Assembly: GCA_039934415.1 (NCBI GenBank)
Contig: JBDTME010000002.1
Coordinates: 14,351 to 78,350 of the forward strand
DNA: 64,000 bases
DNA from: Patescibacteria group bacterium
Lineage (GTDB): Bacteria > Patescibacteriota > Microgenomatia > UBA1400 > PJMF01
Direction of reading: 5' to 3'
Below the pieces are notes generated by a model. The model was given only the letters and a program-made list of their open reading frames with translations. It was not told where the DNA came from and did not search any database. The position numbers and the translations under genes were made by a program. Shown here in pieces: positions 17,511-61,165 of the stretch (positions are counted from its first letter, which is position 1; the number at the start of each line of letters is the position of its first letter).

Positions 17511-17516
17511 ATTGAT

Positions 17517-19860: not shown

Positions 19861-19861
19861 T

Positions 19862-19897: not shown

Positions 19898-19940
19898 GGT
19901 AGAAACGCACATTCCTTACTGCAAAAATCACTAATTACCC

Positions 19941-27352: not shown

Positions 27353-28451
27353 TCGAACACATATACCAAAAAAATCAGTGCAGCTTGTAACAGAGTGTCT
27401 CAACAGCGGTTGGATTTCTGGTCAGGGCAAATATGTTGAAAAATTTGAAAAAAAGTTTTCTCAATTCGTCGGTACAAAGTACGCATTAGCTACGAATTCA
27501 GGCACATCCGCACTTCATTTAGCGATACTAACTCTAGGTATTGGCCCGGGTGACGAAGTGATTTTGCCAGCATCAACCATTGCATCCTGTTTTTTTGCGA
27601 TCTGGTATACAGGAGCAAAAGCCATTCCTGTTGACGTAACACCCGACACCTACACTATAAATCCTCAGCTCATAGAGTCACACATCACAAAAAACACTAA
27701 AGCAATCATGGCTGTTCATCTCTATGGACATCCTTGCGACATGGATGCATTAGTTCATCTCTGTCATAAGCACAAATTATTCTTGATTGAGGACGCAGCT
27801 GAAGCACACGGAGCAGAATACAAAGGTAAAAAAGTTGGAAGTTTTGGTGACGTAAGCTGTTTTAGCTTCTACGCTAATAAACTCATCACAACTGGCGAAG
27901 GTGGCGCAGTGGTAACAAATAGTAATTCACACCATGTGCTTGCTAAAAAACTAAGAACACTTTATTTTTCTGATCAAAAACGATTTATTCATGATGGTAT
28001 CGGATATAAGTACGTGATGACAAATCTGCAAGCAGCGCTCGGCCTCGCTTCTCTAGCAGAGATAAAGAAATCAATTTCATTCAAAAAGAAAATGGCAGAG
28101 TTATACCAAAATCATCTCTATGAGATTCCAGGTTTAATACTTCCGATAGAAAAAGTGAACTGTTCAAACGTATATTGGATGTATGCCATTTGTATTGAGG
28201 AAAAAAAGTTTGGAATGAATAGAGATCAACTCATGGATATTTTATGGAATAAATATCATATCGAAACGCGAACATTTTTTTATCCCCCAAACATAGCCTT
28301 TGCATCTCTAGGCGTTTTCTCAAAACAATATTTCCCTATAGCTGATAAAATCTCTCAAGAAGGTCTGTACTTACCATCAGGTCTAGGGAACACTACTGAA
28401 GAGTTTAAGGCAGTTTGTAATGCAATCCAAAAAATTTCCAAAACCCATTAA
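27339..28451 (+). CDS. DegT/DnrJ/EryC1/StrS-family PLP-dependent sugar aminotransferase (ArnB/WecE-like)
   Basis: 370 aa; N-terminal block VTECLNSGWISGQGKYVEKFEKKF...ATNSGTSALHLA and a Lys-containing active-site region typical of the family. Confidence 0.85.
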   Translation: MIPVSRTHIPKKSVQLVTECLNSGWISGQGKYVEKFEKKFSQFVGTKYALATNSGTSALHLAILTLGIGPGDEVILPASTIASCFFAIWYTGAKAIPVDVTPDTYTINPQLIESHITKNTKAIMAVHLYGHPCDMDALVHLCHKHKLFLIEDAAEAHGAEYKGKKVGSFGDVSCFSFYANKLITTGEGGAVVTNSNSHHVLAKKLRTLYFSDQKRFIHDGIGYKYVMTNLQAALGLASLAEIKKSISFKKKMAELYQNHLYEIPGLILPIEKVNCSNVYWMYAICIEEKKFGMNRDQLMDILWNKYHIETRTFFYPPNIAFASLGVFSKQYFPIADKISQEGLYLPSGLGNTTEEFKAVCNAIQKISKTH

Positions 28452-30531
28452 GTTTTTTTTAAAAAAGGAAGTGCTTGCAGTTTGTTGCTGCTTTTTGTTT
28501 ATTTTGGCACTTTCTTGGAAAGGCTTGAATTGGGGGAGATATGAATCCTGGAATGCTGATCAGATGGCATTCAAAGACATTTTTATACAGAATGAAACCC
28601 CATTCAATCCAAAGTGGTTTCTAAAACCTCCGTTCTACACATACTTTATTTTTTTTGTAAGTGAGTATCCTCTAAATACGCTCTCTACCTTCCTCCACTT
28701 AAACCTAACTGACTTAGACACTATGAAATACTTGTGGGCAAAGATTTTGAATGTTCTAGCTTATAGTCTCTCCTGCGTCATCTTATTTAAAATCATTAGA
28801 AAAATTCGGCCAGTTGAAATAGCAGTAACTCTTACTGTCATTTTTATAACAAGTGCAGGAATGATTCCTTTTCTTTTTTTTCTGACACCTGACCTTTTCT
28901 TAATTTTATGGATGCTACTTTCCTTTTATTTCTCTCAATTAGTCTATGTCACTGACGATAAAAAAATAACAAACTATGTTCTTGCTGGTTTTTTTGTAGG
29001 AGTATCTACAGCATGCAAATATAACGGCGGCATTGTTTTGTTTGCTCTAATGATTTTTCACTTTTTAAGTCTGAAGAAATCCAATTCAAACTTGATAACC
29101 ACAAAAAAAAACCTCTTATTGTTTTCAGCCATGGGGGTTGCCGCACTTGCCTTTTTGATCTGTAATCCTTTCTCAGTTTTTGATTTCCCCACTTTCTCTT
29201 CAGACCTGTACTATCTTCTTACTACTGATGGCGCATATTTCGACATGGTAGTGAATTCGCAAAATGGACTAATTCGTTTCATTTTGCAGTTTCTTGAACT
29301 GATGGGAATTCCGGCTTTTATCCTACTCTTTATTTCAGTTGCACTTTCATTTAAAGCAAGAGCACAATGGAAAATGAAACTGACCGCGACTTTTCTTGCT
29401 TCATTTAGTTTGCTCCTAATTCCAGCTTTTATATTTTATAGTTATCGCGAAATACCAACTCGTTACGTGCTTCCTCTGTATCCGTTTTTACTCATTTCAG
29501 TAGCATGTTTATTTGATAAAAAAGTTATCTTCCAAAAAATTTTCATTGCCTCTCTGCTACTAACTCTTTCTTACAACATATTTTGTTCACTACAAGTCAG
29601 CACTCGATTTTCCCAAGATCCTCGGACACAGATGCAACGTGAAATCCTGACACTCATTCCTCCTTTTTCTAAAGTTGAACAAACCGCTTTCACGCCCAAT
29701 ATACCAACTGCATCAAAATCAAAATTCTTAATCTCTGAAATACCCATGATCACAGGTAGGAATCGCTACTTCAAAGAAAAATTCAAAGACAATGAGAAAA
29801 TTTTGAGTTTGATTGATCATCACGAAGGTACCGAAAATCTCAATTGGTTTAGTTCTGAAAATTTTCAAAAGAGAAACCCGGATTACATCATTTTGGACTC
29901 TTGGCAATATTTCTATGTGGGTAGCCCGTACATACAACAAAACTACCCTGAACTCGTAAGCTATTACAACTTCTTACTAGAGAAACACGATAAATATAGG
30001 GTGGTTTTTCAAAAGCAGACACCACTTCCACCCTGGTATCTATATCCTCGTGATATTGATTTTTTACAAAACACGATTACTTTACTTGAGCTCGATAATA
30101 ACGAAGTGAATTATGATATTGACGTTACAAATATCCGCCAGCAACTACTAAGTCAAACCCGTCTTATCCTTCTAAATACTGAACAAAAAAAACTGATGTA
30201 CAAATTTGCTACCTTCGAATCTATAAATAGTAATATGGAGAAATCTCAATTACTCTACAATCTCGCAGTTCACTTTAATGGTAAAATCCCACCAGAGCTA
30301 ATTGAAAATCTTTTGCAATTAAGTGTCACAACCTCGCCTGGTTGGAGTCATTTTTATATTGAAACGGCTAATTACTATTGGGAACATAGTGAGTATCAAA
30401 AAGCTCAAGATACGTTAAGAGCATGTTTGAAAATTCAAGTAGCGCAAGAACATTGCTTCAACATTTATAAAAAAGATACCTTGGGGAAATTTGGTGAGCT
30501 TTTGAAGTCCATTAATTCACTACCACAATGA
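28420..30531 (+). CDS. GT-C fold polytopic membrane glycosyltransferase (ArnT/PMT-like, GT39/GT83 family), tentative
   Basis: 703 aa. The N-terminal ~400 aa carry about 11 TM helices, with an acidic first-loop motif (RYESWNADQ). Soluble C-terminal domain. Follows the aminotransferase. Confidence 0.45.
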   Translation: MQSKKFPKPIKFFLKKEVLAVCCCFLFILALSWKGLNWGRYESWNADQMAFKDIFIQNETPFNPKWFLKPPFYTYFIFFVSEYPLNTLSTFLHLNLTDLDTMKYLWAKILNVLAYSLSCVILFKIIRKIRPVEIAVTLTVIFITSAGMIPFLFFLTPDLFLILWMLLSFYFSQLVYVTDDKKITNYVLAGFFVGVSTACKYNGGIVLFALMIFHFLSLKKSNSNLITTKKNLLLFSAMGVAALAFLICNPFSVFDFPTFSSDLYYLLTTDGAYFDMVVNSQNGLIRFILQFLELMGIPAFILLFISVALSFKARAQWKMKLTATFLASFSLLLIPAFIFYSYREIPTRYVLPLYPFLLISVACLFDKKVIFQKIFIASLLLTLSYNIFCSLQVSTRFSQDPRTQMQREILTLIPPFSKVEQTAFTPNIPTASKSKFLISEIPMITGRNRYFKEKFKDNEKILSLIDHHEGTENLNWFSSENFQKRNPDYIILDSWQYFYVGSPYIQQNYPELVSYYNFLLEKHDKYRVVFQKQTPLPPWYLYPRDIDFLQNTITLLELDNNEVNYDIDVTNIRQQLLSQTRLILLNTEQKKLMYKFATFESINSNMEKSQLLYNLAVHFNGKIPPELIENLLQLSVTTSPGWSHFYIETANYYWEHSEYQKAQDTLRACLKIQVAQEHCFNIYKKDTLGKFGELLKSINSLPQ

Positions 30532-38770: not shown

Positions 38771-39613
38771 TTATAGTTCTTTTTCTTCAAGAATCTCTGT
38801 GATGATTGCGTAGGATACTGATGATTTTTCAGTTTGAGCCCAGACTTGCATACCAATCTTTATTGGTTGATCTTCGTTGAAATAACACACGCCTAGTTCA
38901 CAATTTGCAGTAAGTTGAACTTCAGTTTCAATATTACGATGTAGATCACTTTCAACAAATTGCATGGTCCCTCCCTCTACTTTAGCTACCTCTTCAGTGG
39001 AAGGTTTCACCGAAAGCACTTTTACAATCTGGAAAATTTGATTGTTCTTTTCGTCATAAACTGTAAAGGAATCGTCATACGTCTTCAGTAACCAAATAGG
39101 AACATTTCTCATAAAAAGTTTTAATCTAAACTTTTTTTTTGAAACTATATTTTGATCTTCAGAGTTATGAATTCGCTGAATTAAACCTGTAAATTTTACA
39201 TTCTTAATAGTTAACGTAAGATTATCACCAATCCTTAATCTTTGATTTCCATAGCTATAGAGTTGAGTTCTGCTATTTAATAACGCATCTATCCCTACAG
39301 ACACTCTTAAGTAGCGAAATTCTCCACCATAGTCAACATTTTGTACTTTGTTGACAGTTCCAACCAGTTTGCCAAATTCATTGTATATCTTATCTTGTTC
39401 ATGAATCGAGTTTGTCAACCAATATTGAGGTGGTGGACCACCTGGGTAGTAACTAGACTGCGCAACTAAATCAATTATTACTTGTTTTTTTGACCTGGAA
39501 AACCAAAAAAGTGAAAACAAAATTGCGACCGCAACGATAAGAATGATTAACATCTCTATTAAAGTTAATTTTCTAATTTTTCTCAGAATCGATGAAAAAA
39601 ATTGATTTGTCAT
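38771..39613 (-). CDS. hypothetical membrane-anchored protein
   Basis: N-terminal TM (LIEMLIILIVAVAILFSLFWF). Start placed at the internal Met abutting the stop of the Wzy-like gene; the ORF-track start 39727 would overlap it by 118 nt. Confidence 0.35.
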   Translation of the reverse strand: MTNQFFSSILRKIRKLTLIEMLIILIVAVAILFSLFWFSRSKKQVIIDLVAQSSYYPGGPPPQYWLTNSIHEQDKIYNEFGKLVGTVNKVQNVDYGGEFRYLRVSVGIDALLNSRTQLYSYGNQRLRIGDNLTLTIKNVKFTGLIQRIHNSEDQNIVSKKKFRLKLFMRNVPIWLLKTYDDSFTVYDEKNNQIFQIVKVLSVKPSTEEVAKVEGGTMQFVESDLHRNIETEVQLTANCELGVCYFNEDQPIKIGMQVWAQTEKSSVSYAIITEILEEKEL

Positions 39614-41055
39614 GTTATTGTTCCTTTTTTTTCGGCTAAAAAGCTTAATCCTATCATTATCCAAAAAATCTCTGCCAATGGTGAACGAAGTAGGTATGGA
39701 TATGCCTGAGAAGCAGTAATATAGCATACACCACAGAGGAATATTGCAAGAAAAAAATCATCTTTTGCTTCTAACCAATAGACAAATTGTCTTTTAAAGG
39801 AGAAATATAAAAATATACAAAAACTGAAAAGTCCAAGAATACCTGAGCCCACTGCAACTTCGACTAATATATTGTGAGGTGATGTTGGATCATAAGAAAA
39901 AAGCTCAGGTGGGAAATTTCCTAATATCTCATACTTAAACATTCCTAGACCAATTCCAAAAGGATTATTTAATATGTACTGCAAAGATAATAGATAATGT
40001 GACAATCGGTAATCAATTCCACCACCACTACTAAAGGTATATGAAAAGTTTGAAAGTCTAAGAATAATTAACGGAATAAATAACAAAGAAGTGACACCCA
40101 TTAAGATGGCAAACTTTTTATATTTTGTAAATAATCTTATAGCAAGTTGCCGATATTTTTTTTGACTGAGATAAAAAAATCCCAATAATAAAGTTACTAT
40201 CCAAACAAATCTACTAGAGGTAATAATGAGTCCTACTATGGCAAAGAAAAGTAAAAAGACATAAAATAAATTTTCAAATCTGTTTTTCTCACTTCCAACG
40301 ATTTTGTAAACTACAAGAGGTAGGATCGTAATAATTAAAGTTCCAGCTGCATTTGGGTCAAAAAAGTATCCTCCAGGACGATATTTATTTTGCGCCTCCA
40401 CTTGAAAAGATCCAAATGGGCTCTCATCCGAAACTTGTTCTAGTTCAATACCTAACTGACTTCCTTTCCTAAATTGTAGACAAAGCAGCGCGACAAGAAC
40501 AAAACAATGAATAAGTAGAATGGGAAATACAAAATTTAAATGCGGCTTATATCTCTGAATAAGACCACTAATAACACTAAGAGAAACAACTAGAGAAAAA
40601 GTAAGGTATTGATAAAAAGCAAATGATGTATATGTTGCATTAAAAGAGGATAATCCCGCTATAATTAAAAAAAAGAAAAGAAAAAACAGTTCTTTTGGTG
40701 ATCTAGTATCGAAGATATTTGAGTTTCCATGAAGTACTTTTAATCTTAAAAAAAGGCCGATTAAACAAAGGATGATAAAATCAGAAAATTTAAAATAATA
40801 CTCAATATTGATTGGAAAATTTCCTCCCCAAAATTCTTTTTCTACTACAAATGATAAAAAATAGCGCCCTCGCTGAAAAGGAAAGATGGTAAGAAAAATA
40901 TGCCATAAGGCAATAATGGCATTTTTATTGATTTTATAAGAAATCACAAAAAAAAACGCCAATAAAAAAATGTAACCTTTATTTGAAAAGTTATAAAGAT
41001 GACAAAAAATGAAAAATATGGAAACAGCAGAATTTAATAATTGTTTATTTATCAT
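39610..41055 (-). CDS. O-antigen polymerase/ligase (Wzy_C)-family membrane protein
   Basis: 481 aa, about 11 TM helices; Wzy_C-like block SPHNILVEVAVGSGILGLFSF. Confidence 0.6.
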   Translation of the reverse strand: MINKQLLNSAVSIFFIFCHLYNFSNKGYIFLLAFFFVISYKINKNAIIALWHIFLTIFPFQRGRYFLSFVVEKEFWGGNFPINIEYYFKFSDFIILCLIGLFLRLKVLHGNSNIFDTRSPKELFFLFFFLIIAGLSSFNATYTSFAFYQYLTFSLVVSLSVISGLIQRYKPHLNFVFPILLIHCFVLVALLCLQFRKGSQLGIELEQVSDESPFGSFQVEAQNKYRPGGYFFDPNAAGTLIITILPLVVYKIVGSEKNRFENLFYVFLLFFAIVGLIITSSRFVWIVTLLLGFFYLSQKKYRQLAIRLFTKYKKFAILMGVTSLLFIPLIILRLSNFSYTFSSGGGIDYRLSHYLLSLQYILNNPFGIGLGMFKYEILGNFPPELFSYDPTSPHNILVEVAVGSGILGLFSFCIFLYFSFKRQFVYWLEAKDDFFLAIFLCGVCYITASQAYPYLLRSPLAEIFWIMIGLSFLAEKKGTIT

Positions 41056-48929: not shown

Positions 48930-50495
48930 ATGGTTTGTATCCTGAATAGTAAGATATTACACACGCTACTCAATAAGCGAATTTCTATGTCAAACATTCC
49001 AGACCGCCTCACAGCTGCATTTAGCCAAGTTAAAAAAGATGTCAAAATGCTGACCAGTTCTCAAACATATTCCAAAATGTCACAGAACCAGATCATCGGC
49101 GGATTGACAATGCTGCTATTGACTGTGGGCGTAGCCGCTGGAGTATATCTCGGTCAGATCAGTCAAGAAAATAGACAACAAGCATTTGTTCCTTATGACA
49201 CTTGTGTAAGTGGTGACAGTAATTGTATAGGACATGGTGATGGTTTCGCCTGCAGCAGTAACGGTCGCTGTGCATTAAGCCAACTTACTGGAAGTTGTTC
49301 ATGTGACCAAACAAATCCAATACCAACTGGCACAATCAGTCTCGGTTGTAGTTCAGGGCAAGAGTTTTTAAATGAAAATACCTGTAATGCTATTTGTGGA
49401 GGAGGTTGTATCCAAGGTGGCATTGGGTATTGCTGTGTGGGTACAGGCCCGACTAGCACACCTGCTTTAGATAATGGCTGCGCTGCTAGTGGCGGTACTT
49501 GCAAAGGGACTTGCGGAGCTAGTGATACACAAACTGGCCTTTGTTCTGGTTCAAGCTCTGGACCAAAATGCTGTAAACCAGTATTACCAACAGCCACCCT
49601 TTTCTGTTGGGGCGCAGGAACGGCTTGCGGAAACTCAGGTGGTAGCGCATCTTGTTGCCCAGGGCTGTCCTGCACAATTGATACTTCCGACAATAATACC
49701 GCCAAGTGTACGGCCCCTGCTAATTGTGGAAATAATGTCTGCTCACAAGGTGAGAATTGTACTACCTGTCCAACTGATTGTGGTCTTTGTCCTCAACCGA
49801 CCAACACGCCTGTCCCAGTGAGTTCTTGCCCATCTGGTGAAACTTGTGTAGAAACAGCAGGTACTTGCGGAGGCATCGGCGGTTCTTTGACATCTAATCG
49901 TTGCGGATCAGGAAATTCACAGTTTTGTTGTTTAGTTATCGATTCATGTCCAAGTGGAGAAACTTGTGTCGAAAATGTTCAAGCTTGTGGCATCATCGGC
50001 GGAACGACTACAAGTAATAGGTGTGGCTCAGAACAAGATTCGAAAACATGTTGTAAGTTGAACTCTGGTCCATCGGCTGCACCTCGTCCAACCAACACAC
50101 CAGTTCCATTACCAACGAACACATCAGTGCCTGTCAGTCCAGGGCAACCAACAAATACGCCTGTTCCAAATCCAAACCCAACGAATACGTCAGTGCCTGT
50201 GGCAACAGACGTACTCGCCCCAGTCTGTGTGAATATCACAATGAACAATCCAGCATCACTGACACCTAATACTCCACCTAACACGGGTGACGTGGTGACC
50301 TTCACCTGTTCTCAAGTGGCTGGCGCAAGTCGATATGAGTTCCGCGTCAAGTTACCAGACAACTCATATGTCAACATCAACCCAAGTCTGGCAACACTCT
50401 ATGTGTCGCAGCAATACCAGATCCCTTCAGCTGGTACTTTCACAGCTGCTTGCCGACCATGTAACGCAAACGCCTGTTCAGCTTGGGAGAATTAA
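48930..50495 (+). CDS. secreted/anchored Cys-rich surface protein, paralog A (type-B leader; C-terminal RYEFR-WEN domain)
   Basis: 521 aa. TM then YLGQISQENRQQAF. A Cys-rich module about 90 percent identical to the one in 51971. Further Cys-rich repeats, a PTNT linker, and a conserved C-terminal domain ending ...CSAWEN-stop. The true start may be the internal MSNIPDRL. Confidence 0.6.
   Translation: MVCILNSKILHTLLNKRISMSNIPDRLTAAFSQVKKDVKMLTSSQTYSKMSQNQIIGGLTMLLLTVGVAAGVYLGQISQENRQQAFVPYDTCVSGDSNCIGHGDGFACSSNGRCALSQLTGSCSCDQTNPIPTGTISLGCSSGQEFLNENTCNAICGGGCIQGGIGYCCVGTGPTSTPALDNGCAASGGTCKGTCGASDTQTGLCSGSSSGPKCCKPVLPTATLFCWGAGTACGNSGGSASCCPGLSCTIDTSDNNTAKCTAPANCGNNVCSQGENCTTCPTDCGLCPQPTNTPVPVSSCPSGETCVETAGTCGGIGGSLTSNRCGSGNSQFCCLVIDSCPSGETCVENVQACGIIGGTTTSNRCGSEQDSKTCCKLNSGPSAAPRPTNTPVPLPTNTSVPVSPGQPTNTPVPNPNPTNTSVPVATDVLAPVCVNITMNNPASLTPNTPPNTGDVVTFTCSQVAGASRYEFRVKLPDNSYVNINPSLATLYVSQQYQIPSAGTFTAACRPCNANACSAWEN
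49174..49441 (+). repeat. dispersed direct repeat copy 1 (Cys-rich module DNA)
   Basis: About 270 bp; roughly 85-90 percent identical by eye to 52211-52478. Confidence 0.7.
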
Positions 50496-50606: not shown

Positions 50607-51962
50607 ATGGATAGGAAACCTAACCTCCCCTTCCGGTGGAACTCTGTTTTAATCATAGGTCTCATTGTTTTAGTCGGAATTTTTGCAGTTGCCACAGCTC
50701 TTTTTCAGAGAAATCGTGGCCCTCTCGCTCCAAATGCACCTGGATCTCAACCAAAAGCTGATGTTGTCACTGAAGGATGCACGGTTCGCTTCTCCATTTC
50801 AGATGATGCTAATCTCACATGCACCAAAAGAGCATTTCTAGATGAGCTCGACAACATTGCAGGAACCTATCATTTAAGAAATGAAATTCAAAGCATAAAA
50901 GCTGGTGATATCGTCGTCTTCAATATAGATATCCAAAATAACAGCAGCACTGGAACGACTGTGAATTTAAATGATTTGTTTGCAGTGAGTCCCTCTGTTT
51001 CAAATGCCGTGGAATACATTGACTCAAATTGCCCAGGAGGCGGTACCTTTAATCAAAGTACACTCAATTTGACCTGCTCAAATAAATTTGTCGGCGGCGG
51101 TCAAAACCAACAACTCACTTTCCGAGTCAAAGTAAATGCCGCTGCCACAATAGGTACTCAGATCAGTAACACGGCTACAACTTCCGATGGAACAAGTACC
51201 GCAATTTGTACTAGGAGCATCATCGTTGCTGAAGCAACGACTCAAAAAGCCTGCAATCAAAGCTGCGAAACAAGTAAAGAATGTACTGGCACTTTAGAAT
51301 GTACGAATGTAAATGGTTTGTTTGTTTGTAGAGATCCACAAATTCCTAGCGATTCAACATGTGGTGCACCGACTGCCACCCCAACCTTTACTCTAGTCCC
51401 CAGTTCTACGTCTACTTCAACACCAACACGTACGCCGACCAGTACTCCTACTCCTACTCATACTCCAACGGCTACATTCACTTTAGTGCCTACGGCGACG
51501 AGTACTCGAACACCAACTCCAACATTTACTAATACGCCAACTAACACTCCTACAAGAACTCCGAGCCCAACGGCTACTTACACACCGTCGCCTACTTTCA
51601 CTGCACTGCCAACAAGCACAGGCACGGTTACACCAACGGCCACGTTCACTATTACTTTGACACCATCTGCTACGGCTACAACAAGAGTTCTCGCTCAATG
51701 TAACCAGGGTTGCAGTACTAATGCTGATTGTGCCAACTCTAATCAAATTTGTTACACCACGAATGATGGAAATCGTTGTCGTCTCGCAGATAACGTCGGC
51801 AGCGACAATTGCTCGACCACCATCGCTTCGGGTGCAACGTCGACTCCATTCATTCCTCAGTTACCAAAATCTGGTAGTGAAAACCAACGAGTGTTGCTCA
51901 TAGGTGGGGTCATCCTAGTTGTGATCATCATCGGAATTGTGGGCTTCTTACTCATTTTGTAA
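50607..51962 (+). CDS. surface protein with type-A leader ([11 protein letters not shown]), PT-repeat linker, Cys-rich C-terminal module and LPKSG-TM C-terminus
   Basis: 451 aa. TM then [29 protein letters not shown]. Thr/Pro tandem repeats. C-terminal [33 protein letters not shown]-stop. Confidence 0.6.
51365..51690 (+). repeat. imperfect tandem ACN-CCN (Thr-Pro) coding repeat tract
   Basis: Encodes TPTxT/TPTFT repeats inside the 50607 gene. Confidence 0.6.
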
Positions 51963-51970
51963 AAGATTTT

Positions 51971-53548
51971 ATGAGTGATCAAAATTTACCACCACAATCA
52001 AATAATGGCCTGGATGAAATCCTGAAAGAGTTGGAACAACGCTTTGGCATTAATACTGACCAATCGGAAAACCAATCCGACTCCAAAAAAAATAGTGGTG
52101 TTAATTTTAAACGATACGGCAAAAACCAAATTATTGGTGGATTAACACTGGTACTCTTGGTTGTTGGTGCAGTTGCCGGTATATACCTTGGTCAAACAAA
52201 TCAAGAGAACAGACAACAAGCATTTAATCCTTATGACACTTGCGTAAGTGGTGATGGTAATTGTTTAGGACATGGTGATGGTTTTGCCTGTAGTAGCAAT
52301 GGTCGTTGTTCACTGAGTCAGCTCAATGGGAGCTGTTCCTGTGACCAAACAAATCCGATACCAACTAGCACCATTAGTCTCGGTTGTAGTTCGGGGCAAG
52401 AGTTTTTAAATGAAAGTACTTGTAATGCCATTTGTGGTGGCGGATGTATCCAGGCTGGCATTGGGTATTGCTGTGTCGGAAGTGGTTCTAACCCAACCAA
52501 TACTCCGAGTAGTCCAGGCATCACTAACACCCCCAAACCCACCAACACTTCTGTCCCCACTACTCCTGGAGCTCCGACAAATACACCCGTCCCAGTGTCG
52601 ACAACCCAACCACCTGCAAGTACACCTGGCAATCCAGTCAACACACCTGTCCCCGTCCCTGCCACTGCCACACCGCCTACTTCGTGCGGAAATAGTATCG
52701 TGAATACTGGAGAACAATGTGATGACGGAAATTCAAACAATAATGATTATTGTTTGAATAACTGCACATTGAGTTCTTACTGTAAATTTTATGATTTAGA
52801 GGGTTTACCCATTGGAGAAATGCAACCGCTAGGAAGTCCCTACTCAGCAGATGGCATACAATTTTCTAGCAACGGTCAATATTGGGTTGGGAACTATGCC
52901 AGTGTCTTAATTGACCCAGCAGGTGGAGCTGCCTCACCGGTGCACGGTATCTGCGTAAATAACTGTGCTCAAGGGGCATTCGATATATTCTTTAATCCAC
53001 CGGTCGATTTCTTTGGCATAGTTGTGTTTAGTGGACCGAGTTTAGATCCAGTAACATCAACAACAGGACTTACATATTATTACGGCACGAGTAGTAGCCA
53101 GTATGTTAGTAATACTGAGACAGCATACACGCGACATACTATTTCACAAACTGGCATCAATCGCGTCAATTTAACATCATCAAATTCTTATGAAGGTTGG
53201 GATGATATAGTCATTTGTAGATTTCCAACACCAACAAGTACACCGACTACCGCAATTGGCCCTACGTGTAATGGAATCAAAGTTTCATACGGAAACAGCA
53301 ACGAACCAACCAGACCTGTTCGGATTGGTGATAACTTAACGTTCACTTGTGGCACCTTAAGCAGTGCAGCTCGCTATGAATTTAGACTGTTCTTAAACGG
53401 AGTTTTCTTGCAAAACATCAATCCAATTTCCACATCGGCTAGTATTTCGCAACCATTTCCTATTGCACAAAGCGGGAACTATAGTGCACAATGTAGGATG
53501 TGTACTGATAGTACAGCTACAAGTTGTCAATCTTGGGAACCACTATGA
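51971..53548 (+). CDS. secreted/anchored Cys-rich surface protein, paralog B (type-B leader; C-terminal RYEFR-WE domain)
   Basis: 525 aa. TM then YLGQTNQENRQQAF. Cys-rich module near-identical to paralog A. PTNT linker, then a central beta-rich region. C-terminal ...ARYEFRLF...CQSWEPL-stop. Confidence 0.6.
   Translation: MSDQNLPPQSNNGLDEILKELEQRFGINTDQSENQSDSKKNSGVNFKRYGKNQIIGGLTLVLLVVGAVAGIYLGQTNQENRQQAFNPYDTCVSGDGNCLGHGDGFACSSNGRCSLSQLNGSCSCDQTNPIPTSTISLGCSSGQEFLNESTCNAICGGGCIQAGIGYCCVGSGSNPTNTPSSPGITNTPKPTNTSVPTTPGAPTNTPVPVSTTQPPASTPGNPVNTPVPVPATATPPTSCGNSIVNTGEQCDDGNSNNNDYCLNNCTLSSYCKFYDLEGLPIGEMQPLGSPYSADGIQFSSNGQYWVGNYASVLIDPAGGAASPVHGICVNNCAQGAFDIFFNPPVDFFGIVVFSGPSLDPVTSTTGLTYYYGTSSSQYVSNTETAYTRHTISQTGINRVNLTSSNSYEGWDDIVICRFPTPTSTPTTAIGPTCNGIKVSYGNSNEPTRPVRIGDNLTFTCGTLSSAARYEFRLFLNGVFLQNINPISTSASISQPFPIAQSGNYSAQCRMCTDSTATSCQSWEPL
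52211..52478 (+). repeat. dispersed direct repeat copy 2 (Cys-rich module DNA)
   Basis: Matches 49174-49441. Confidence 0.7.
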
Positions 53549-55503
53549 AACAAAAATACCCCATCCTTTCATCACAATTCGTTGATTCGGTGTTCACACC
53601 GCTGTCACTCGTTCTAATTAGTATTGTTGCCATCATTGCTGTGGCAGTGGCTTTGTTCCAAGTGAATAAAGGTCCAGTAGCTCCTAATGCTCCTGGGTCA
53701 CAACCAAAAGCAGCCGACTTTACAGGACAAACTTGTGCCCTCACATTTGTCGTTGCTGGACCATCAGCAACACCAGCTCCTCAGGTCATTGATTTAGAAT
53801 TACAAAAGACCGCAGATAAGTCAGCAGTAAATGTCGGTCAACAAATCACCTTCACAGTTTCACTTTTCAACCGAGGACCTGCAGATGCAACAAATGTCCG
53901 AGTTCAGGATATTTTGCCAACCGGGTTGCAGTACGTTTTAGATACTAGCAGCGGTGCATACAACTCGACGAGTGGCGTTTGGAGCATTGCTAGTTTAGCT
54001 GCGAATCAAACTGTCAGTCTCAATATTACGGCAACAGTAACTCAATCTGGTTCTTTAACTAACTACACTCAAGTTTCAGCTGCAGATCAAACCGATGTGG
54101 ACTCCACTCCAGGAGATAATTCTGGAACTGGCACAGTTGCACATCAAGACGATGACAGCGCAGTTGTGATCAATTCAACAGCCAACACTAGTGACCTTGA
54201 ATTAACCAAACGTGCTAACACTACAACTCCTTCAGTCGGAGGCTCAGTAGTATTCACTATTGATGTTGTGAACAAAGGCCCACAGAACGCAACCGGTGTC
54301 AAAGTAGCCGACTTACTCCCAACTGGATTGAGCTATCTGTCTCACTCCACTGCAACCGGCAACTTTAACTCTACTTCAGGTATCTGGGATATCGGGAATT
54401 TAGCAACAGGTTCAACTGTGAGTTTGACATTGACTGCACAAGTCAACACCACCTCACCTGTAACAAATTACTCTCAGATCACAGCCAGTTCCCCAACGGA
54501 TTCAGATTCAACACCTGGAAATAACTCAGGAAACGGAACAGTGCCACACGAAGATGATGATGACTCGGTCGTACTGACCCCTCAGTCAACACCTACGAAC
54601 ACACCTCCGGCAGTAAGTGCTGATCTATCACTGACCAAACAAATCAGTAATAGTACACCAAAAGTCGGAGAGAACATCACATACACTGTTACGGTCTACA
54701 ATGCCGGACCAAATGACGCAACCAACGTAACAGTCAGTGAGCCACTCGTAGGAGGAACAACATTCGTCTCTGCTACACCGTCTCAAGGTACTTACAATGT
54801 ATCGGCAGGCCTTTGGACAATTGGCACCATTCCTGTCAACCAAAGCAGAACCTTGCAGATCGTCGTGACTGTCAATGTCTCGACCAGCATAACCAACACT
54901 GCACAAGTTCAGCACAGTGACCAACCTGATCCAGACTCTACACCGGGCAATAACAACCCAAATGAAGATGATCAACAGTCAGCTACAACAAACCCTGTTG
55001 CACAAGGCGCTGATCTATCACTCAACAAACGAGTCAATGTGACCAGACCAGTCGTTGGACAGAATGCAATCTTCACAGTTGAAGTGCATAATGCAGGACC
55101 TCTGCAAGCAGATAATGTGACCGTCAAAGACTTGGTCCCATCAGGCACCACCTTTATTGATGCTCAACCTTCTCAAGGTAGCTACAATTCAGGAAACGGT
55201 ATCTGGACGATCGGTTCGATCACAAAAGATTCTACGGTAAGCATACAATTAACGCTGAGAGTTGATACCAACTCACAGATCGTAAACGTGGCAGAAGTAG
55301 CATCAAGCAGTCAACCTGACCCTGACTCTACACCAAACAATAACAATCCAAACGAGGATGACCAAGATGATGCAGTTCTAAATCCTCAGACAGCAGCAGC
55401 TTTACCAAAGTCGGGAAATGCTTCAAACACCACCCTCTTTGTCATAGCAACTGGAGTCATAGTATTGATCATCGGAGCCATGGGACTGCTACTCCTTCTG
55501 TAA
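53545..55503 (+). CDS. DUF11-repeat surface protein with type-A leader and LPKSG-TM C-terminus
   Basis: The ATG overlaps the upstream TGA (ATGA); ORF-track start 53524 is a TTG. TM then [28 protein letters not shown]. Five DUF11-like repeats (LTKxxS...VxNxGPxxATxVxVxDxLPxGxxF). DSTPGNN spacers. C-terminal LPKSGNASNTTLFVIATGVIVLIIGAMGLLLLL-stop. Confidence 0.7.
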   Translation: MKQKYPILSSQFVDSVFTPLSLVLISIVAIIAVAVALFQVNKGPVAPNAPGSQPKAADFTGQTCALTFVVAGPSATPAPQVIDLELQKTADKSAVNVGQQITFTVSLFNRGPADATNVRVQDILPTGLQYVLDTSSGAYNSTSGVWSIASLAANQTVSLNITATVTQSGSLTNYTQVSAADQTDVDSTPGDNSGTGTVAHQDDDSAVVINSTANTSDLELTKRANTTTPSVGGSVVFTIDVVNKGPQNATGVKVADLLPTGLSYLSHSTATGNFNSTSGIWDIGNLATGSTVSLTLTAQVNTTSPVTNYSQITASSPTDSDSTPGNNSGNGTVPHEDDDDSVVLTPQSTPTNTPPAVSADLSLTKQISNSTPKVGENITYTVTVYNAGPNDATNVTVSEPLVGGTTFVSATPSQGTYNVSAGLWTIGTIPVNQSRTLQIVVTVNVSTSITNTAQVQHSDQPDPDSTPGNNNPNEDDQQSATTNPVAQGADLSLNKRVNVTRPVVGQNAIFTVEVHNAGPLQADNVTVKDLVPSGTTFIDAQPSQGSYNSGNGIWTIGSITKDSTVSIQLTLRVDTNSQIVNVAEVASSSQPDPDSTPNNNNPNEDDQDDAVLNPQTAAALPKSGNASNTTLFVIATGVIVLIIGAMGLLLLL

Positions 55504-55535
55504 AAGTAGAAAGAGTTCGTTTAAAACGTAAAAAG

Positions 55536-55569
55536 AAAAGAGGTCTTATTCATTAAGGCCTCTTTTTTT
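55536..55569 (+). terminator. rho-independent terminator after DUF11 surface-protein gene
   Basis: AAAAGAGG, 15-nt loop, CCTCTTTT, then a T7 run. Confidence 0.5.
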
Positions 55570-55659
55570 CAAGAAGAAAGTGAGCATAAAAGTTAGGTGA
55601 AAAAGTAAACAGGATAGAAAGTTAAGTACTTTTTATAAAATTTTTAGAATATAAACGAG

Positions 55660-56535
55660 ATGCAAGAAAGTTTTACTCCTCCGACACAAACTGAACCACA
55701 AGTTTCAAGAGTATCCAAAGTAAAAATGGTTTTGCCTATTTTAGGAGTGGTGGTGGTTGCAGTTGCTGCCGTAGCAGTGAGTTTATTTTTATCACAAAAG
55801 CAGGAACCAGTTGCACCAAATGTCCCCGCCTCACAGCCAAAAGCCTCGGAGATCGTTAATGATATTACTTGTACTTTGAACTTTGAGGTACTCGCACCGA
55901 CTCCGACGCCCACCTTTACTGCAACCTTGACGCCAAGCAATACACCTACTGCTACCCCTACTTTTACGCCAACGAGAACGCCGACCGCCACGCCTACTTT
56001 TACCCCTACACCTATTCCTCCAACGAGTACTCCTACTCGAACACCAACACCAACTGCTACAGCCACTCCGACTGCTACACCAACGAGAACACCAACACCG
56101 ATTCCACCGACCAGTACTCCGACAAATACGCCGACATCGACACCAACATCGACACCAACTGCCACTCCGACTAGAACACCAACGATCACGTTAACACCGT
56201 CAGCAACTGCTACTTACACTCCATCAGCGACTCCAACCTCACCAATTGCCGCTACTTGTAACTCTATTAAGATGATCTATGGCGTTGGGGAGCCAGACAG
56301 AGCACCAAAACTCTCTGACAATGTTCAGTTCCAATGTGGAACAATTGCAGGTGCATCTCGATATGAGTTTAGAATTCTGGCTCCTGCACCGAACAATACC
56401 TACCAACCTTGGCCAGCTATCTCTGGAGGAACATTATCTCAACCATATACCATCGCTGCGTATGGTTCGTACAGCGCGCAATGTCGAGCTTGTGCCGGAG
56501 TTGATGCTTCAAGCTGTCAGCCATGGGAAAACTAA
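55660..56535 (+). CDS. surface protein with type-A leader, long PT-repeat linker and C-terminal RYEFR-WEN domain
   Basis: 291 aa. TM then [31 protein letters not shown]. About 110 aa of TPTxT repeats. C-terminal ...[10 protein letters not shown]...CQPWEN-stop. Confidence 0.55.
55893..56245 (+). repeat. imperfect tandem ACN-CCN (Thr-Pro) coding repeat tract
   Basis: Encodes PTxTPT repeats. Its reverse complement yields the spurious GV-repeat ORF 55644-56189. Confidence 0.6.
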
Positions 56536-56611
56536 CGACTACATTGATCTTCACCAGATTGTTTTTTTAAGAAAAATTCTCTACACTTAAAAGTGGAATC
56601 AATTAATATAC

Positions 56612-58261
56612 ATGCTTACTTTATCCAGTCTCTGGCGGTCGAAGCGTTCAGTGATGGCAGTGCTTGCCATCGTAGTTGTGGCTGTAGCAGCTGTAGGTAT
56701 TTCACTTTTTCAACGTTTTTCGCAAGGAACCCTCGCTCCCAACGCTCCACAGTCTCGACCAGCGGCTTCAGAAGTAAACTCAAATACCTGCACATTAAGT
56801 TTTTCAGTTGAACCACCCGCTGCTCCGTGTATCGCATTGACAAAAGTTGCTAGCCCCATCTGTTTGCCAAATGGTTCACCTGGCGCCCAAATTACTCTCG
56901 GAACGAACGCGACTTGTCCTCCTCAACCAGGAACTCGTAAACCAGTTGATGTCATGATCGTGATGGATAACTCAACTTCTCTATCTGCCGATAAATTTTG
57001 GGGTCCGATTAAAACTGCAACTGCTAATAGTGTGATGAATTTCGATCCAGCTGTAGACAGAGTTGGTTTAGTAACTTTTAATCGCAGTGCGACACTTCGC
57101 TCTGGTTTGACGAATAATCTTAGTTCAGTTCAATCAATTGTTGATAATTTGTCCGTTCCAGCCAGTGGATCAGCGACCAATATCGGTAATGGATTAGAAA
57201 TAGCAAAAAATACACTGGCGAGCACTGCCCGACCAGAAGCAGTCAAAGTAGTTATCTTATTCACAGATGGCCAGGCAAATGCAGATTCCACACTCACGAT
57301 CTGCGATACCTTTGATCTGAACTGGAACTCATGCAAACAGCACGCTCAAACTCAAGCAACGCTTATTAAGAGTGCTGGAAGCACCTTGTATGCTGTTGGA
57401 TTTAATACGGTGAGTGAAACACAGCATCCAGGCTCAACTGCGATGTTGCATGATTTACTTTTACAAATGGCCTCTTCGAGTAACACGTATTACACCTCAA
57501 ACAACTCCACTGAACTCGCTGCTGCATTTGCTCACATTGCAGATACTATTACCGATACTTTGGCAAATAGCGCAGTGATCACAGATATTCTTCCTCCGGG
57601 AATTTCGCTCGTTTCCGGAAGCGCCATCCCTGCTTTTACAACTCAAAGTGGCCAAACGCTCACTTGGAATCTGGGTACAGTTGGAGTTGATCAACAAACC
57701 ACAGTGACATTTCAAGTTGCTTTACCCAACTTCTCAGCCAACCAACTCGTTGACGTCTATCCCGACTCCGAAATCAACTACACTGACCACTTAGGCAATC
57801 CTATTACATTGTCTTTCCCTGAAACTCGAGTTTCACCGAATACTTGTGCGACACCAACTGCTATTCCTTCACCTACTTCTAATCCAACTAACACACCAAC
57901 AAGTAGTCCAACGCCGACTTTCACGGCCACCCCAACTAACACCAGGACGCCTACACCAACTTTTACAGCAACTCCGACGAACACGCCAACAAATACTCCA
58001 ACGCCTACCAATACTGCAACCAATACGCCAACACGCACCCCAACACCGACGGCTACTGCCACAGCGACGAGTACTCCTTCACATACACCTACGCTGACTG
58101 CAACCAATACAGCAACTCAAACACCAACATCGACATTCACGCCTACTCCAACCCCACCAGGACTGCCGAAAGCTGGCACTACAGGACCAACATTCATGAT
58201 TCTAGGAATCGGCGTTGCAGCAATCGCCTTCGGACTGCTGGGAATCTTGTTACTCTTCTAG
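56612..58261 (+). CDS. von Willebrand factor A-domain surface protein with type-A leader and LPKAG-TM C-terminus
   Basis: 549 aa. TM then [28 protein letters not shown]. vWA blocks [12 protein letters not shown] (MIDAS DxSxS), [17 protein letters not shown]-repeat linker. C-terminal [32 protein letters not shown]-stop. Confidence 0.7.
57850..58160 (+). repeat. imperfect tandem ACN-CCN (Thr-Pro) coding repeat tract
   Basis: Encodes PTNTPT repeats. Reverse strand gives the spurious ORFs 57778-58107 and 57846-58097. Confidence 0.6.
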
Positions 58262-58327: not shown

Positions 58328-58401
58328 GCGCCTGTAGCTCAATCGGTTAGAGCATCAAGCTTATACCTTGAGGGTTCTAGGTTCGAGTCCTAGCAGGCGC
58401 A
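58328..58401 (+). tRNA. tRNA-Ile with anticodon UAU (TAT)
   Basis: 74-nt cloverleaf folded by hand. Acceptor GCGCCTG/CAGGCGC with discriminator A. D-arm GCTC/GAGC. Anticodon stem TCAAG/CTTGA, loop CTTATAC with U33 and A37. T-arm CTAGG-TTCGAGT-CCTAG. No encoded CCA. Confidence 0.85.
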
Positions 58402-58413
58402 CAGGAAAAAATT

Positions 58414-58831: not shown

Positions 58832-61165
58832 TTACAATTTCGCTCGTTTATTCATATCTTCTTCGACAACGGCACGGGGTTTGCCATATTTCAGTCGTGA
58901 CAGTTCTTTGATCATCTCAGCAAGCTTGGGGTTCATCTGAGCTTTTTGAGCATCCATGTCCTTTTTCAGAGACATGCTAAATGGTGGAACGGGTTCATTT
59001 CCGACAATTGTCTTGATATACACGTTATATTTTTCAATATTAGTTAAATCATTTTCGGAAAACACCGGTGCAAATTCGTGCTGCAAGAAATTGGCATCAG
59101 GTACACCGACACGGAAACAAATCATGGTACCAACGTTTCCAAACACAGCATTTTTGACATCTTCTTCGATCTGGGCTACAAATTGATTTGCCACAATTAG
59201 ATTCAATCGATATTTCCGAGCCTCGGACAGAATAACGGCAAAATCTTCAGTCGCATAATTCTGAAACTCATCAACGTATAAATAGAAGTCAGTACGCTGT
59301 TCCATCGGAATATTTGCACGACCCATTGCAGCTGTCAACACTTTCGGCACCAAGATCAAACCCAAGAACTTTGCATCCTCTTCACCCAACTTTCCTTTAG
59401 ACAAGTTCACTAATAAAATTTTCTGCTCATCCATAATTCTGCGAACATTAAACGCACTATCCGATTGACCAATGATATTACGCATCGTTTTATTGGTAAT
59501 AAATCGACCGAACTTTGACACAATATAGTCCAGCACTTCTGACTTATGAAAATCAGACGTTTGAGCAATTTGATCCGTCCAATATCGGCGCACGATTGGA
59601 TCTTTGACATACGGTAGCATCTCTTCTACAAACTTCGCGTCGGTCAGTAAGCGAACCATCTCAATAAACGTTCCACCTGGTTTCGACATGATCGTTAACA
59701 TTGCGTTACGAATGGCGTGTTCGAATCGAGGACCGATGATACCTGTCTTGTGTGGATCGTACAGTTTATACATTAACCCAATCACGGATGACGCCACAAA
59801 ATGCTGCTCTTCTTCTGTAAAGGCCTCCATCATATTCATACCCATCGGTCGATCTGTATCAGACGGATTAAAATAAATCACATCCTCAGCACGCTCTGGT
59901 GGCATCAGCTGCATCACATCTTCCACAAACTCTCCATGCGGATCGATCGCGCAGACCCCTTTTCCATCCACAATGTCCTGCAAAATCATTTCTTTCAGGA
60001 ACTCCGATTTTCCTGTTCCAGTCTTTCCAATGATGTACATGTGACGTCGACGATCATCTAATCCCAAGAAGATTTTCTTATCTTGACCACGATAGGAACT
60101 TTTCCCAAGATACAAACCAGTCTGAGAAATGTTTTCAGGAGCCGGTGCGCTTTTCGCGTTTAACCAAAAAATGTGGTGAGTCTCGACAGTTTTATTAGGA
60201 AAATGAAAAACAGTCGCCAACTCTTCTGAGTTTAAAATAAATGAGCCACGATTAAACATCGGTATATACCGATAAATCATGTCGATCATGAATAATTGTT
60301 TGACCCAAATTCGAGTTTTTTCAAACGCATTAAATGACGAAGTGTATTGGGCGAAAGCACTCACTATATTATTTAAATGCGATTGAGCCGTCCTTTCTTG
60401 GGGAGAGGAGACCACAATTCGCATACTTACACGAAAACCTGGACGACTCACTTTATTATCAATACTTTCTAGTTGTTTTGGATCATTTCTGTATGAAGCT
60501 TTCTCTGGATCCGCTTCTTTCTTTTTGATATTAGAAACATACGAACTCCCACTTTTTTGCCACCCTTCGCCTTCTGGTTGAATCAGAATCTGCAACACAG
60601 CACCTTCACCATCCACCATTTTTGACATTGCAGAAGTGATCAAAGATAAACCATCTGTTGGCAAATCTTTGTAGGTTTTAATAGGAAAATAATTTGGATG
60701 TTTGAGATGAATAGCGCTAAAAGCCACTTTGCCGTGCTCAGAAAAAATATTCACCTCGTCGTGCTCTTCAATTCGTGCGCCAGGATACGCCCCATGAACT
60801 TGCTTCTCCACTAAGTCTCGCAGTGATCGAGGGACATTGATATAAAACTTAATTTCTTCTTTTAAGGCTACAATCTCAAAACCAATATGAGGCTGTGGCT
60901 TTAAGAAAGAGAACCAACCATCCTCACGCAATGAATGCAGTGACGCAAACATTTGCTCAGCTGCATCAATTTTAATTTCATTATCTTTAGGAAGTGCAAC
61001 TAACAGTGTGACAAAATCTAAGGAATATTTTTCTTTATTGCGATATTTAAACCATTGAAAAAACATGTACAAGAACACTGCCAAACCAAGCAACGAGATA
61101 AACAACAACACGAGCATGCTGACGTACACGAGCGACTGGGCGATGAGTTCGTTAAGTTGATTCAT
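58832..61165 (-). CDS. membrane-anchored P-loop NTPase of the TraD/TraG/VirD4 coupling-protein (FtsK-HerA superfamily, DUF87-like) type
   Basis: 777 aa. Two N-terminal TM helices. Walker A IIGKTGTGKS, resembling TraD GxTGxGKS. Walker B LYVDEFQNY followed by LIVANQ. Overall T4CP-like layout. Exact family not resolvable by eye. Confidence 0.5.
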   Translation of the reverse strand: MNQLNELIAQSLVYVSMLVLLFISLLGLAVFLYMFFQWFKYRNKEKYSLDFVTLLVALPKDNEIKIDAAEQMFASLHSLREDGWFSFLKPQPHIGFEIVALKEEIKFYINVPRSLRDLVEKQVHGAYPGARIEEHDEVNIFSEHGKVAFSAIHLKHPNYFPIKTYKDLPTDGLSLITSAMSKMVDGEGAVLQILIQPEGEGWQKSGSSYVSNIKKKEADPEKASYRNDPKQLESIDNKVSRPGFRVSMRIVVSSPQERTAQSHLNNIVSAFAQYTSSFNAFEKTRIWVKQLFMIDMIYRYIPMFNRGSFILNSEELATVFHFPNKTVETHHIFWLNAKSAPAPENISQTGLYLGKSSYRGQDKKIFLGLDDRRRHMYIIGKTGTGKSEFLKEMILQDIVDGKGVCAIDPHGEFVEDVMQLMPPERAEDVIYFNPSDTDRPMGMNMMEAFTEEEQHFVASSVIGLMYKLYDPHKTGIIGPRFEHAIRNAMLTIMSKPGGTFIEMVRLLTDAKFVEEMLPYVKDPIVRRYWTDQIAQTSDFHKSEVLDYIVSKFGRFITNKTMRNIIGQSDSAFNVRRIMDEQKILLVNLSKGKLGEEDAKFLGLILVPKVLTAAMGRANIPMEQRTDFYLYVDEFQNYATEDFAVILSEARKYRLNLIVANQFVAQIEEDVKNAVFGNVGTMICFRVGVPDANFLQHEFAPVFSENDLTNIEKYNVYIKTIVGNEPVPPFSMSLKKDMDAQKAQMNPKLAEMIKELSRLKYGKPRAVVEEDMNKRAKL

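Follow-up and report, generated by a model that had tools for sequence, protein, structure and literature searches.

To our knowledge, every cultivated member of the Patescibacteria lives in attachment to host microbes, and little is known of how the structures for this attachment are made. One described system specific to the candidate phyla radiation (CPR), the Pam pilus, has been reported from both the Saccharimonadia and the Microgenomatia (Troman et al., bioRxiv 10.64898/2026.03.03.709456); in it a single beta-strand of one subunit fills the truncated Ig-like C-terminal domain of its neighbour; the tip subunit has an acceptor domain without a donor strand, and the terminator PamR combines an N-terminal donor strand with a C-terminal membrane helix. 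Here we describe a protein module of similar logic from a 64,000-nucleotide stretch of a Microgenomatia genome (assembly GCA_039934415.1, contig JBDTME010000002.1, positions 14,351 to 78,350 of the forward strand), referred to below as the window. On its plus strand the list of open reading frames (ORFs) contains, between 48.9 and 58.3 kb, six successive genes for secreted proteins, which we designate by their start positions. Four of these proteins (50607, 53545, 55660 and 56612) begin with the same leader, composed of a short basic N-terminus, an uncharged helix of about 20 residues, an Ala/Pro motif (the APNAP motif) and a short strand that starts with a cysteine. Protein 55660 ends in a C-terminal domain (CTD) of about 95 residues with five Cys, and the same domain ends the products of the interleaved genes 48930 and 51971. 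The strand part of the leader is best explained as a tag that docks covalently on an Ig-like domain of a partner protein; this would be a new form of donor-strand surface assembly, combined here with putative sortase anchoring.

Compared by their published description, Pam pili appear to be the closest system in logic, and their division into tip, shaft and base would be matched by 48930 and 51971, by 55660 and by 50607, 53545 and 56612, respectively. In Pam pili, however, the donor strand is the linker between two folded domains and all cysteines are reported to be paired; the operon also contains genes for PapD-like membrane chaperones, and no APNAP leader, LPXTG signal or inter-subunit disulfide has been reported. 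Chaperone-usher pili would be alike in that an N-terminal amphipathic strand with alternating hydrophobic residues completes the Ig-like fold of the adjacent subunit and the tip adhesin lacks a donor strand, but they are Gram-negative structures that depend on a chaperone in the periplasm and an usher in the outer membrane, with neither a covalent lock nor a sortase; our sequence-based Pfam scans of the neighbouring genes did not turn up the PapD-like chaperone family, and no usher was seen among them. With the sortase-built proteins of Gram-positive bacteria the window proteins share a C-terminal LP-x-[TSA]-G followed by a transmembrane (TM) helix, as well as stalks of isopeptide (CLIPPER/DUF11 and RrgB-type) and VWA domains. 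Subunits of sortase pili are joined by a sortase-made isopeptide, whereas for the module described here we propose a strand and a disulfide, and it has no conserved pilin-motif Lys. The YSIRK signal is a precedent for an N-terminal signal variant on LPXTG proteins, although the YSIRK motif precedes the helix and the window motif follows it. Finally, the Enas (endospore appendages) of Bacillus are reportedly disulfide-linked pili in which N-terminal Cys connectors bond to the beta-sandwich core of neighbouring subunits. They differ in their DUF3992 jellyroll and in that their assembly, on the surface of the spore, involves neither a Sec anchor nor a sortase; in Pfam searches with 12 CTD sequences no family was significant, and DUF3992 was matched neither by these nor by the six window proteins. 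Apart from the Enas, our literature search found no donor-strand pilus with an intermolecular disulfide.

A sequence-only reading of this DNA had drawn attention to a post-TM motif common to four otherwise different surface proteins, and all four ORFs were found as it described them. Within the window the motif has the consensus [GE]-[PT]-[LV]-A-P-N-[AV]-P-x-S-x-P-x-A and the strand the consensus C-[TA]-[VL]-x-F-x-[IV]. The helix ends in LFQ, as stated there, in three of the copies and in LFLSQ in 55660, and the spacings turned out to be shorter than had been given, with 3–5 residues instead of about 8 between the helix end and the G/E-P pair and 6–8 instead of about 10 between the motif and the Cys. 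A regular expression for APN.P..[QR]P, run over all six frames of the 64 kb, found the four leaders and nothing else. The codons of the copies differ strongly, as had also been noticed: 33 of the 57 identical motif residues (58%) and 16 of the 22 identical strand residues (73%) are differently coded. Since the codons differ while the residues agree, the conservation is at the protein level, which is also borne out by conservation across distant Patescibacteria, and recent gene conversion among the four copies is rejected, in agreement with that reading. Three points were absent from it: the CTD on 48930, 51971 and 55660, the LPXTG-type ends of three of the leader proteins and the division of the leader into two separable elements.

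The leader is not confined to this contig. A hidden Markov model (HMM) of 57 columns, built from the four window leaders and searched against 1.84 billion protein cluster representatives, matched 151 of them at E<=1e-3 and 15 at E<=1e-10, always at the N-terminus, and the AP[NT][AV]P core is present in 137 of the 150 listed matches. Together with the six-frame regular expression, this search rejects an origin of the motif by chance or as a low-complexity match. Ten leader loci were found in a scan of one genome per GTDB species, several of them titled Patescibacteria or Paceibacterota, and further ones by searching the metagenomes of the Joint Genome Institute (JGI) with a degenerate DNA pattern. 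The taxonomic titles of L001, L002, L007, L009 and L010 ('uncultured Pseudomonadales') and of L008 ('Methylococcaceae') look wrong, because the gene content of these loci (type-2 and APNAP leaders and a VirD4-like ATPase, both described below) matches that of the Patescibacteria loci.

In this wider set the motif generalises to P-V-A-P-[NT]-[AV]-P-x-S-x-P-x-A, in which A, P, P, S, P and A are kept in 133–141 of 141 sequences (sequence logos), and it lies 7–10 residues past the TM helix in 132 of 142 proteins, the intervening residues often being RLYQLRQQ or QRQRQ. Between motif and strand there are 4–12 variable residues, and the Cys lies 13–24 residues from the motif start; the strand itself follows the pattern C-[TS]-[LV]-x-F-x-[VIL], very often with a Pro/Thr-rich linker right behind it. 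In two proteins (L020:1554 and L006:9968) the APNAP motif stays just behind the helix and the strand (AACTISFNV and SCTDLAFAL, respectively) is displaced by an inserted domain of about 120–200 residues. The leader is bipartite, consisting of a Sec-type signal-anchor helix with a disordered Ala/Pro segment and, separable from these, an amphipathic Cys beta-strand. The module is real, widespread in Patescibacteria and undescribed: no Pfam or NCBIfam model covers the leader element and our literature search found no paper with the motif peptide string, so that the earlier view of it as belonging to no described signal class stands. A scan of viral contigs gave no relatives of the leader, and word-indexed protein searches, which are poorly sensitive for this lineage, returned one fragment for the leader profile and nothing for the CTD.

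Of the functions considered in the sequence-only reading, that of a docking segment is now supported for the Cys strand by the parity of cysteine counts, by gene adjacency and by two structure predictions, while a processing or sorting signal is still a candidate for the APNAP part. Leader proteins with a C-terminal TM helix have an odd number of Cys in 100 of 106 cases (binomial p=4e-23; cluster representatives with at most 50% mutual identity) and in 34 of 34 cases in the loci fetched for comparison. In 15 of these representatives, as in 53545 of the window, the strand Cys is the only one in the protein; the parity and these single-Cys proteins speak against an intramolecular disulfide of this Cys, an idea that we rejected. 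CTD proteins without the leader are odd as well (26/27 in the fetched loci). Proteins with both leader and CTD are mostly even, in 3/3 cases in the fetched loci and in 9/12 among the representatives, with 6 Cys in 55660 and 6, 12, 12, 12, 12, 14, 22 and 2 in the others. Other N-terminal-TM proteins, taken as a control, divide into 55 odd and 53 even. The odd counts of leader proteins and of CTD-only proteins and the mostly even counts of the dual ones show that each element, strand and CTD, holds one Cys without a partner in its own protein.

Several individual proteins illustrate this rule. P0030, which consists of the leader, a Pro/Thr linker and a CTD of a second class (CTD2), has two Cys in all, C56 in the strand and C127 as the first Cys of the CTD. 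CTD2 ends in ...EFYDEYTIP...HH..LGWF; its first Cys, at the start of the first strand, is found in every member, accompanied by no more than one additional pair of Cys. Most of the exceptions also agree with the rule: the strand Cys has been lost from P0106, which has 8 Cys, and its upstream CTD2-like partner has 12, both counts being even; P0107 has lost the strand and is even, and P0095 has an extra Cys inside the TM helix. The one even CTD-only protein in the fetched loci is 48930 of the window, with 48 Cys, or 47 when counted from M20 (position 48987), the extra Cys being residue 3; the longest ORF probably starts too early here, judging from the homologue in L001, which starts at the equivalent of M20.

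The order of genes points in the same direction. With the ORFs of the fetched loci annotated by HMMs built in this analysis, a gene for a CTD of either class (CTD1 or CTD2) lies immediately upstream of 38 of the 44 distinct leader genes that have an upstream ORF on the same strand, the median gap in these 38 pairs being 9 nt, and CTD carriers make up 51 of the 1594 ORFs of at least 100 codons in these loci. Three of the remaining six leader genes themselves encode leader + CTD proteins. The window contains three such pairs (48930 and 50607, 51971 and 53545, 55660 and 56612), and in the second of them the stop of 51971 overlaps the start of 53545 (ATGA, 53545-53548; we use the ATG at 53545, the ORF list having a TTG at 53524). 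The short gaps between candidate cargo and leader genes suggest translational coupling. In CTD2 systems, moreover, the register of the strand varies with the subtype of the domain: in 12/13 cases the 'EFYDEY' subtype is accompanied by C..L.F or the 'DFCQ.Y' subtype by C.L.F (Fisher p=0.005). Several distant genomes have a third gene ahead of the pair, forming a triad, and its product has a type-2 leader, a sorting signal and an even Cys count; the window counterpart of this gene appears to be 19941-21068. The type-2 leader (TM-G[LV]YL[GT]Q..Q[ED].RQQA) is a second conserved post-TM leader, found in the window on 48930, 51971 and the product of 19941-21068 and, in distant Patescibacteria, on all the candidate cargo proteins and on the product of the first triad gene (upstream genes of L002–L010).

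Two leader + CTD proteins, one for each CTD class, were modelled as single chains with AlphaFold2 (AF2), 55660 with an alignment of 10 sequences and P0030 with one of 9. In the model of 55660 the TM helix spans residues 25–46, the APNAP segment (52–66) is disordered with a predicted local distance difference test score (pLDDT) below 50, and a beta-strand at 71–77, with a block pLDDT of 88, coincides exactly with CTLNFEV, the flanking linkers being mostly below 50–55. The CTD is predicted to be a beta-sandwich (pLDDT 69–91 in 10-residue blocks) and is the only other region with strands, so that the leader strand is predicted to be paired with it. In P0030 the strand occupies residues 56–62 (pLDDT 73–78), CTD2 scores 81–96 and its first strand, 126–133, includes C127. 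In both models, therefore, the strand is predicted to pair with the CTD of the same chain. Fold searches with the CTD gave generic Ig/FN3 sandwiches and no specific family, and a search of the CTD profile against the PDB sequences gave no pilin.

From this evidence we consider it rather probable, though far from certain, that the strand docks on the CTD of the upstream gene's product and is locked there by a disulfide, so that cargo is hung on anchored stalks. The strand would act as a donor strand that completes or extends the Ig/FN3-like CTD of its partner, and an intermolecular disulfide from the strand Cys to the first CTD Cys would lock it in place; the strand peptide ...TGQTCALTFVVAG, for example, would be a candidate ligand for the CTD of 51971. 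The leader proteins with LPXTG-type ends (50607, 53545 and 56612) would be wall-anchored stalks, and the Cys-rich, CTD-only proteins with type-2 leaders (48930 and 51971), having no wall anchor of their own, would be cargo, adhesins or tips covalently hung on them. Leader + CTD proteins such as 55660 would serve as chain extenders. The docking between separate proteins, the disulfide partner, the sortase anchoring and the loss of the N-terminal helix we infer, and all the support for docking is computational.

The composition of the presumed stalks is consistent with this reading. Protein 53545 carries four DUF11/CLIPPER domains (PF01345 E=1.8e-127), a family since renamed CLIPPER and described as an intramolecular-isopeptide domain (PMC12617251); 50607 shows weak similarity to an RrgB-like isopeptide domain, and 56612 has a VWA domain (PF00092 E=4.6e-21). 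DUF11/CLIPPER, RrgB-type isopeptide and VWA domains are typical of load-bearing Gram-positive fibres. The C-termini of 50607, 53545 and 56612 are formed by LPKSG, LPKSG and LPKAG, respectively, with a hydrophobic stretch of 23–25 residues; of the models for such signals, TIGR01167 scored 16.7 bits for 50607, just over its cutoff of 15.9, and Pfam PF00746 scored 17.8, which is below its cutoff of 20. CPR bacteria are reported to be enriched in sortase, which is nearly ubiquitous in the Microgenomates, and likewise in MdbA-like oxidoreductases with VKOR, by which extracellular disulfides could be made (PMC6744442). The window also encodes MurJ and, side by side, a pair of class A penicillin-binding proteins (transglycosylase + transpeptidase; 792 and 805 amino acids), so the organism makes peptidoglycan, a precondition for sortase anchoring.

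A number of observations weigh against this reading. The parity gives one unpaired Cys per element and does not give their pairing with each other; the counts include orthologous proteins, which are not independent samples, and three leader proteins with even counts (P0044, P0055 and P0133) are without explanation. The covariation of strand register with CTD2 subtype may have its source in lineage and shared ancestry. The docking in the AF2 models was read from confidence and strand assignment and not from coordinates or Cys–Cys distances; both models are single chains on shallow alignments of 9–10 sequences, without a leader-only control, and both leave the APNAP segment disordered. The sorting signals lack the basic tail, their ends (...FLLIL, ...LLLLL and ...ILLLF) having no Arg or Lys. 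A regular expression for the TLxTC-type catalytic motif of sortases found none in any window ORF, and neither a sortase nor a peptidase family came up in Pfam scans of the window genes, the neighbour genes and the recurrent neighbour families. An uncleaved N-terminal helix would make for an awkward fibre geometry, and the APNAP motif, the most conserved part of the leader, is not accounted for by docking.

A fuller pathway, which would be new for Patescibacteria and widespread among them, can be drawn from the same elements, and we put it forward as a tentative proposal that has somewhat less chance of being right than docking itself: the APNAP leader would present the Cys donor strand, which would be caught and disulfide-locked by the Ig-like CTD of the next subunit, giving chains of tip, extender and base with the base fixed to the wall by sortase, and the APNAP motif would represent a new class of maturation or glycosylation signal, read by a membrane enzyme. 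If the disulfide-locked docking of the strand were real, it would be a third way of joining surface subunits in single-membrane bacteria, beside sortase isopeptides and the non-covalent strand exchange of the Pam type, and the strand and its CTD would form a natural tag/catcher pair reusable in protein engineering. The module also provides a simple sequence rule by which candidate stalks and cargo adhesins may be sought in any CPR genome, the former by an APNAP leader with a Cys strand and the latter by a CTD with one odd Cys; the module marks more than 150 protein clusters, each paired with a partner gene.

The constant distance of the APNAP segment itself from the membrane is suggestive of a reader bound to the membrane, and the segment may be the site at which such an enzyme, working at a fixed height above the membrane, carries out either maturation cleavage or O-glycosylation. 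We give these two possibilities about equal weight and regard each, taken singly, as doubtful. O-glycosylation, which would be compatible with strand docking, would make the invariant Ser an acceptor for a membrane-embedded transferase of the PMT or the Wzy_C/PglL type. This Ser is kept in 133/141 sequences, is flanked by Pro and lies in an Ala/Pro-rich disordered stretch, a context that PglL-type enzymes favour (PMC8423747). In 11 loci (L122:3923-6304, L006:13327-15747 and 9 more) the leader gene has directly downstream of it, in convergent orientation, a gene for a PMT-family O-mannosyltransferase of about 800 residues, but this neighbourhood is seen in one sub-lineage only; two Wzy_C proteins and a PMT_2 protein are encoded in a glycan-biosynthesis island near the window cluster. 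Known O-glycosylation sites, however, have loose sequons and not 11–13 invariant positions, and a PMT enzyme would more obviously act on the Pro/Thr-rich linkers. O-glycans may be carried by these linkers or by the motif Ser.

Maturation cleavage supposes a leader peptidase that cuts after P-x-A and frees the strand to dock, by analogy with the proteolytic activation of type V pilins. The fibre or stalk model needs the N-terminal helix to be released, the motif lies at a fixed distance from the membrane, and its conservation alternates as in a subsite pattern (S at −5, P at −3, A at −1), the next residue being variable and never Pro. The cut would, however, fall about 20 residues past the helix, and the recurrent neighbours include no gene for a dedicated peptidase. 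For signal peptidase I a Pro at −3 would be unusual, and in the window copies a canonical A-x-A-like site at the end of the helix (AVA/LFQ, ATA/LFQ) could serve instead.

Another way to read the data is to take the whole module as a specialised export or processing signal, comparable with YSIRK or accessory Sec, with the Cys linking the protein to a lipid, glycan, wall or S-layer; we think this improbable. It would agree with the invariable position of the motif behind a TM helix at 7–10 residues, with the peptidase-like alternation of S-x-P-x-A followed by a variable residue and with the C-terminal sorting signals present in about 80% of the full-length leader matches. It gives no account, however, of the upstream gene, whose product has a terminal domain containing one unpaired Cys of its own, of the even Cys counts in proteins with both elements or of the strand being docked on the CTD by AF2, and an inserted domain can move the strand away from the APNAP motif, which itself remains at the membrane. 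Nor is the Cys that of a lipobox, a candidate which we rejected: it lies about 25–30 residues past the helix, with T, A, S or N at −1 and variable residues without a preference for Leu at −2 and −3. A YSIRK/KxYKxGKxW signal was rejected on the grounds that the n-regions are not conserved between the copies, the motif lies 7–10 residues past the helix and no NCBIfam or Pfam signal model matches, and a type IV prepilin (class III) signal on the grounds that no copy has a G|F/M-x-x-x-E cleavage motif ahead of the hydrophobic helix. That the motif is a CPR counterpart of the Gram-positive pilin motif (YPKN-type), with the Lys of S-Q-P-K-A as the nucleophile that a pilin sortase would link to the LPXTG Thr of the next subunit, is hardly credible, for although QPKA is found in three of the four window copies (the VWA protein has RPAA, and VWA proteins are tip-like in Gram-positive pili) and the proteins have LPXTG-type signals and pilin-like domains, the Lys is present in 38/141 sequences (27%) and replaced by A, Q, S, R or E in the others, no other amine is conserved, and neither the Cys parity nor the CTD adjacency is accounted for.

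Table 1. Positions of the features of the surface-protein cluster and of other features mentioned in the text (window numbering).
Feature	Position	Strand	Remarks
48930, candidate cargo protein with type-2 leader, Cys-rich modules and C-terminal Ig-like CTD	48930..50495	+	directly upstream of 50607
48930, TM helix	49092-49154		followed by YLGQISQENRQQA
48930, type-2 leader	49092-49200		
48930, CTD	50211-50492		
48930, first CTD Cys	50226-50228		
50607, leader/anchor protein 1, 451 aa	50607..51962	+	17 Cys
50607, TM helix	50643-50705		
50607, APNAP motif	50721-50759	+	
50607, Cys strand	50778-50798	+	CTVRFSI
50607, putative sorting signal	51861-51959		LPKSG + TM
51971, candidate cargo protein with type-2 leader, Cys-rich modules and C-terminal CTD	51971..53548	+	25 Cys
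51971, TM helix	52130-52192		
51971, type-2 leader	52130-52240		
51971, CTD	53252-53542		
51971, first CTD Cys (C433)	53267-53269		
53545, leader/anchor protein 2, 652 aa	53545..55503	+	sole Cys is the strand Cys, residue 64
53545, TM helix	53602-53658		
53545, APNAP motif	53674-53712	+	
53545, Cys strand	53734-53754	+	CALTFVV
53545, putative sorting signal	55402-55500		LPKSG + TM
55660, leader + CTD protein, candidate extender, 291 aa	55660..56535	+	6 Cys (1 + 5); no LPXTG; Pro/Thr-rich linker
55660, TM helix	55738-55794		
55660, APNAP motif	55807-55845	+	
55660, Cys strand	55870-55890	+	CTLNFEV
55660, Ig-like CTD	56242-56532		
55660, first CTD Cys	56257-56259	+	C200
56612, leader/anchor protein 4, 549 aa	56612..58261	+	7 Cys; VWA domain, Pro/Thr linker
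56612, TM helix	56648-56710		
56612, APNAP motif	56729-56767	+	
56612, Cys strand	56789-56809	+	CTLSFSV
56612, putative sorting signal	58163-58258		LPKAG + TM
Type-2 leader of the product of 19941-21068	20150-20240		gene is the apparent counterpart of the first triad gene
Class A penicillin-binding proteins	1196-6230		two adjacent genes
MurJ	15029-16756		
murJ-pilN-pilO-FN3 genes	15029-21068		
Glycan-biosynthesis island	21700-46900		G+C 31-37%
Wzy_C proteins	21723-24641 and 39610-41055		in the island
PMT_2 protein	28420-30531		in the island
Antisense ORFs	49979-50305, 52318-52740, 55644-56189, 57778-58107	-	GVGV-type repeats
tRNA-Ile	58328-58402		anticodon TAT (UAU); ARAGORN
VirD4/TraG/TrwB-like coupling ATPase	58832-61165	-	777 aa

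Genes for PilN and PilO, for an FN3 protein and a PMT enzyme, and for a MacB-type ABC system recur around the leader loci. The last of these is a tripartite system of an HlyD/YknX-like adaptor, an ABC ATPase and an FtsX/MacB permease, and one sub-lineage has it directly downstream of the leader gene (L003:4177-7194, L005:12124-15124, L008:11978-14981). In the window the cluster is adjoined by the gene for the coupling ATPase, close homologues of which (778–782 amino acids) occur in L003 and L008, in each case downstream of the leader genes by a few kb; type IV secretion systems of Patescibacteria have been reported to be essential for the epibiotic lifestyle (PMC12857230). On the other side, the low-GC glycan island of about 25 kb separates the cluster from the murJ-pilN-pilO-FN3 genes. 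Besides the Wzy_C and PMT_2 proteins it encodes GT1/GT2 enzymes, an asparagine synthase, a carbamoyltransferase and an ABC-2 exporter, and it looks like an insertion, because the blocks flanking it are contiguous in L004 and L006.

Two of the window proteins are identical to NCBI entries from a metagenome-assembled genome titled 'Patescibacteria group bacterium', 56612 to MEO8581523.1, annotated only as 'VWA domain-containing protein', and 55660 to MEO8581522.1, annotated only as 'hypothetical protein'. The antisense ORFs with GVGV-type repeats opposite the Pro/Thr-linker DNA are shadows of the ACN/CCN codon repeats and not genes. Just past the cluster lies the gene for a tRNA-Ile with a UAU anticodon, which is uncommon in bacteria.

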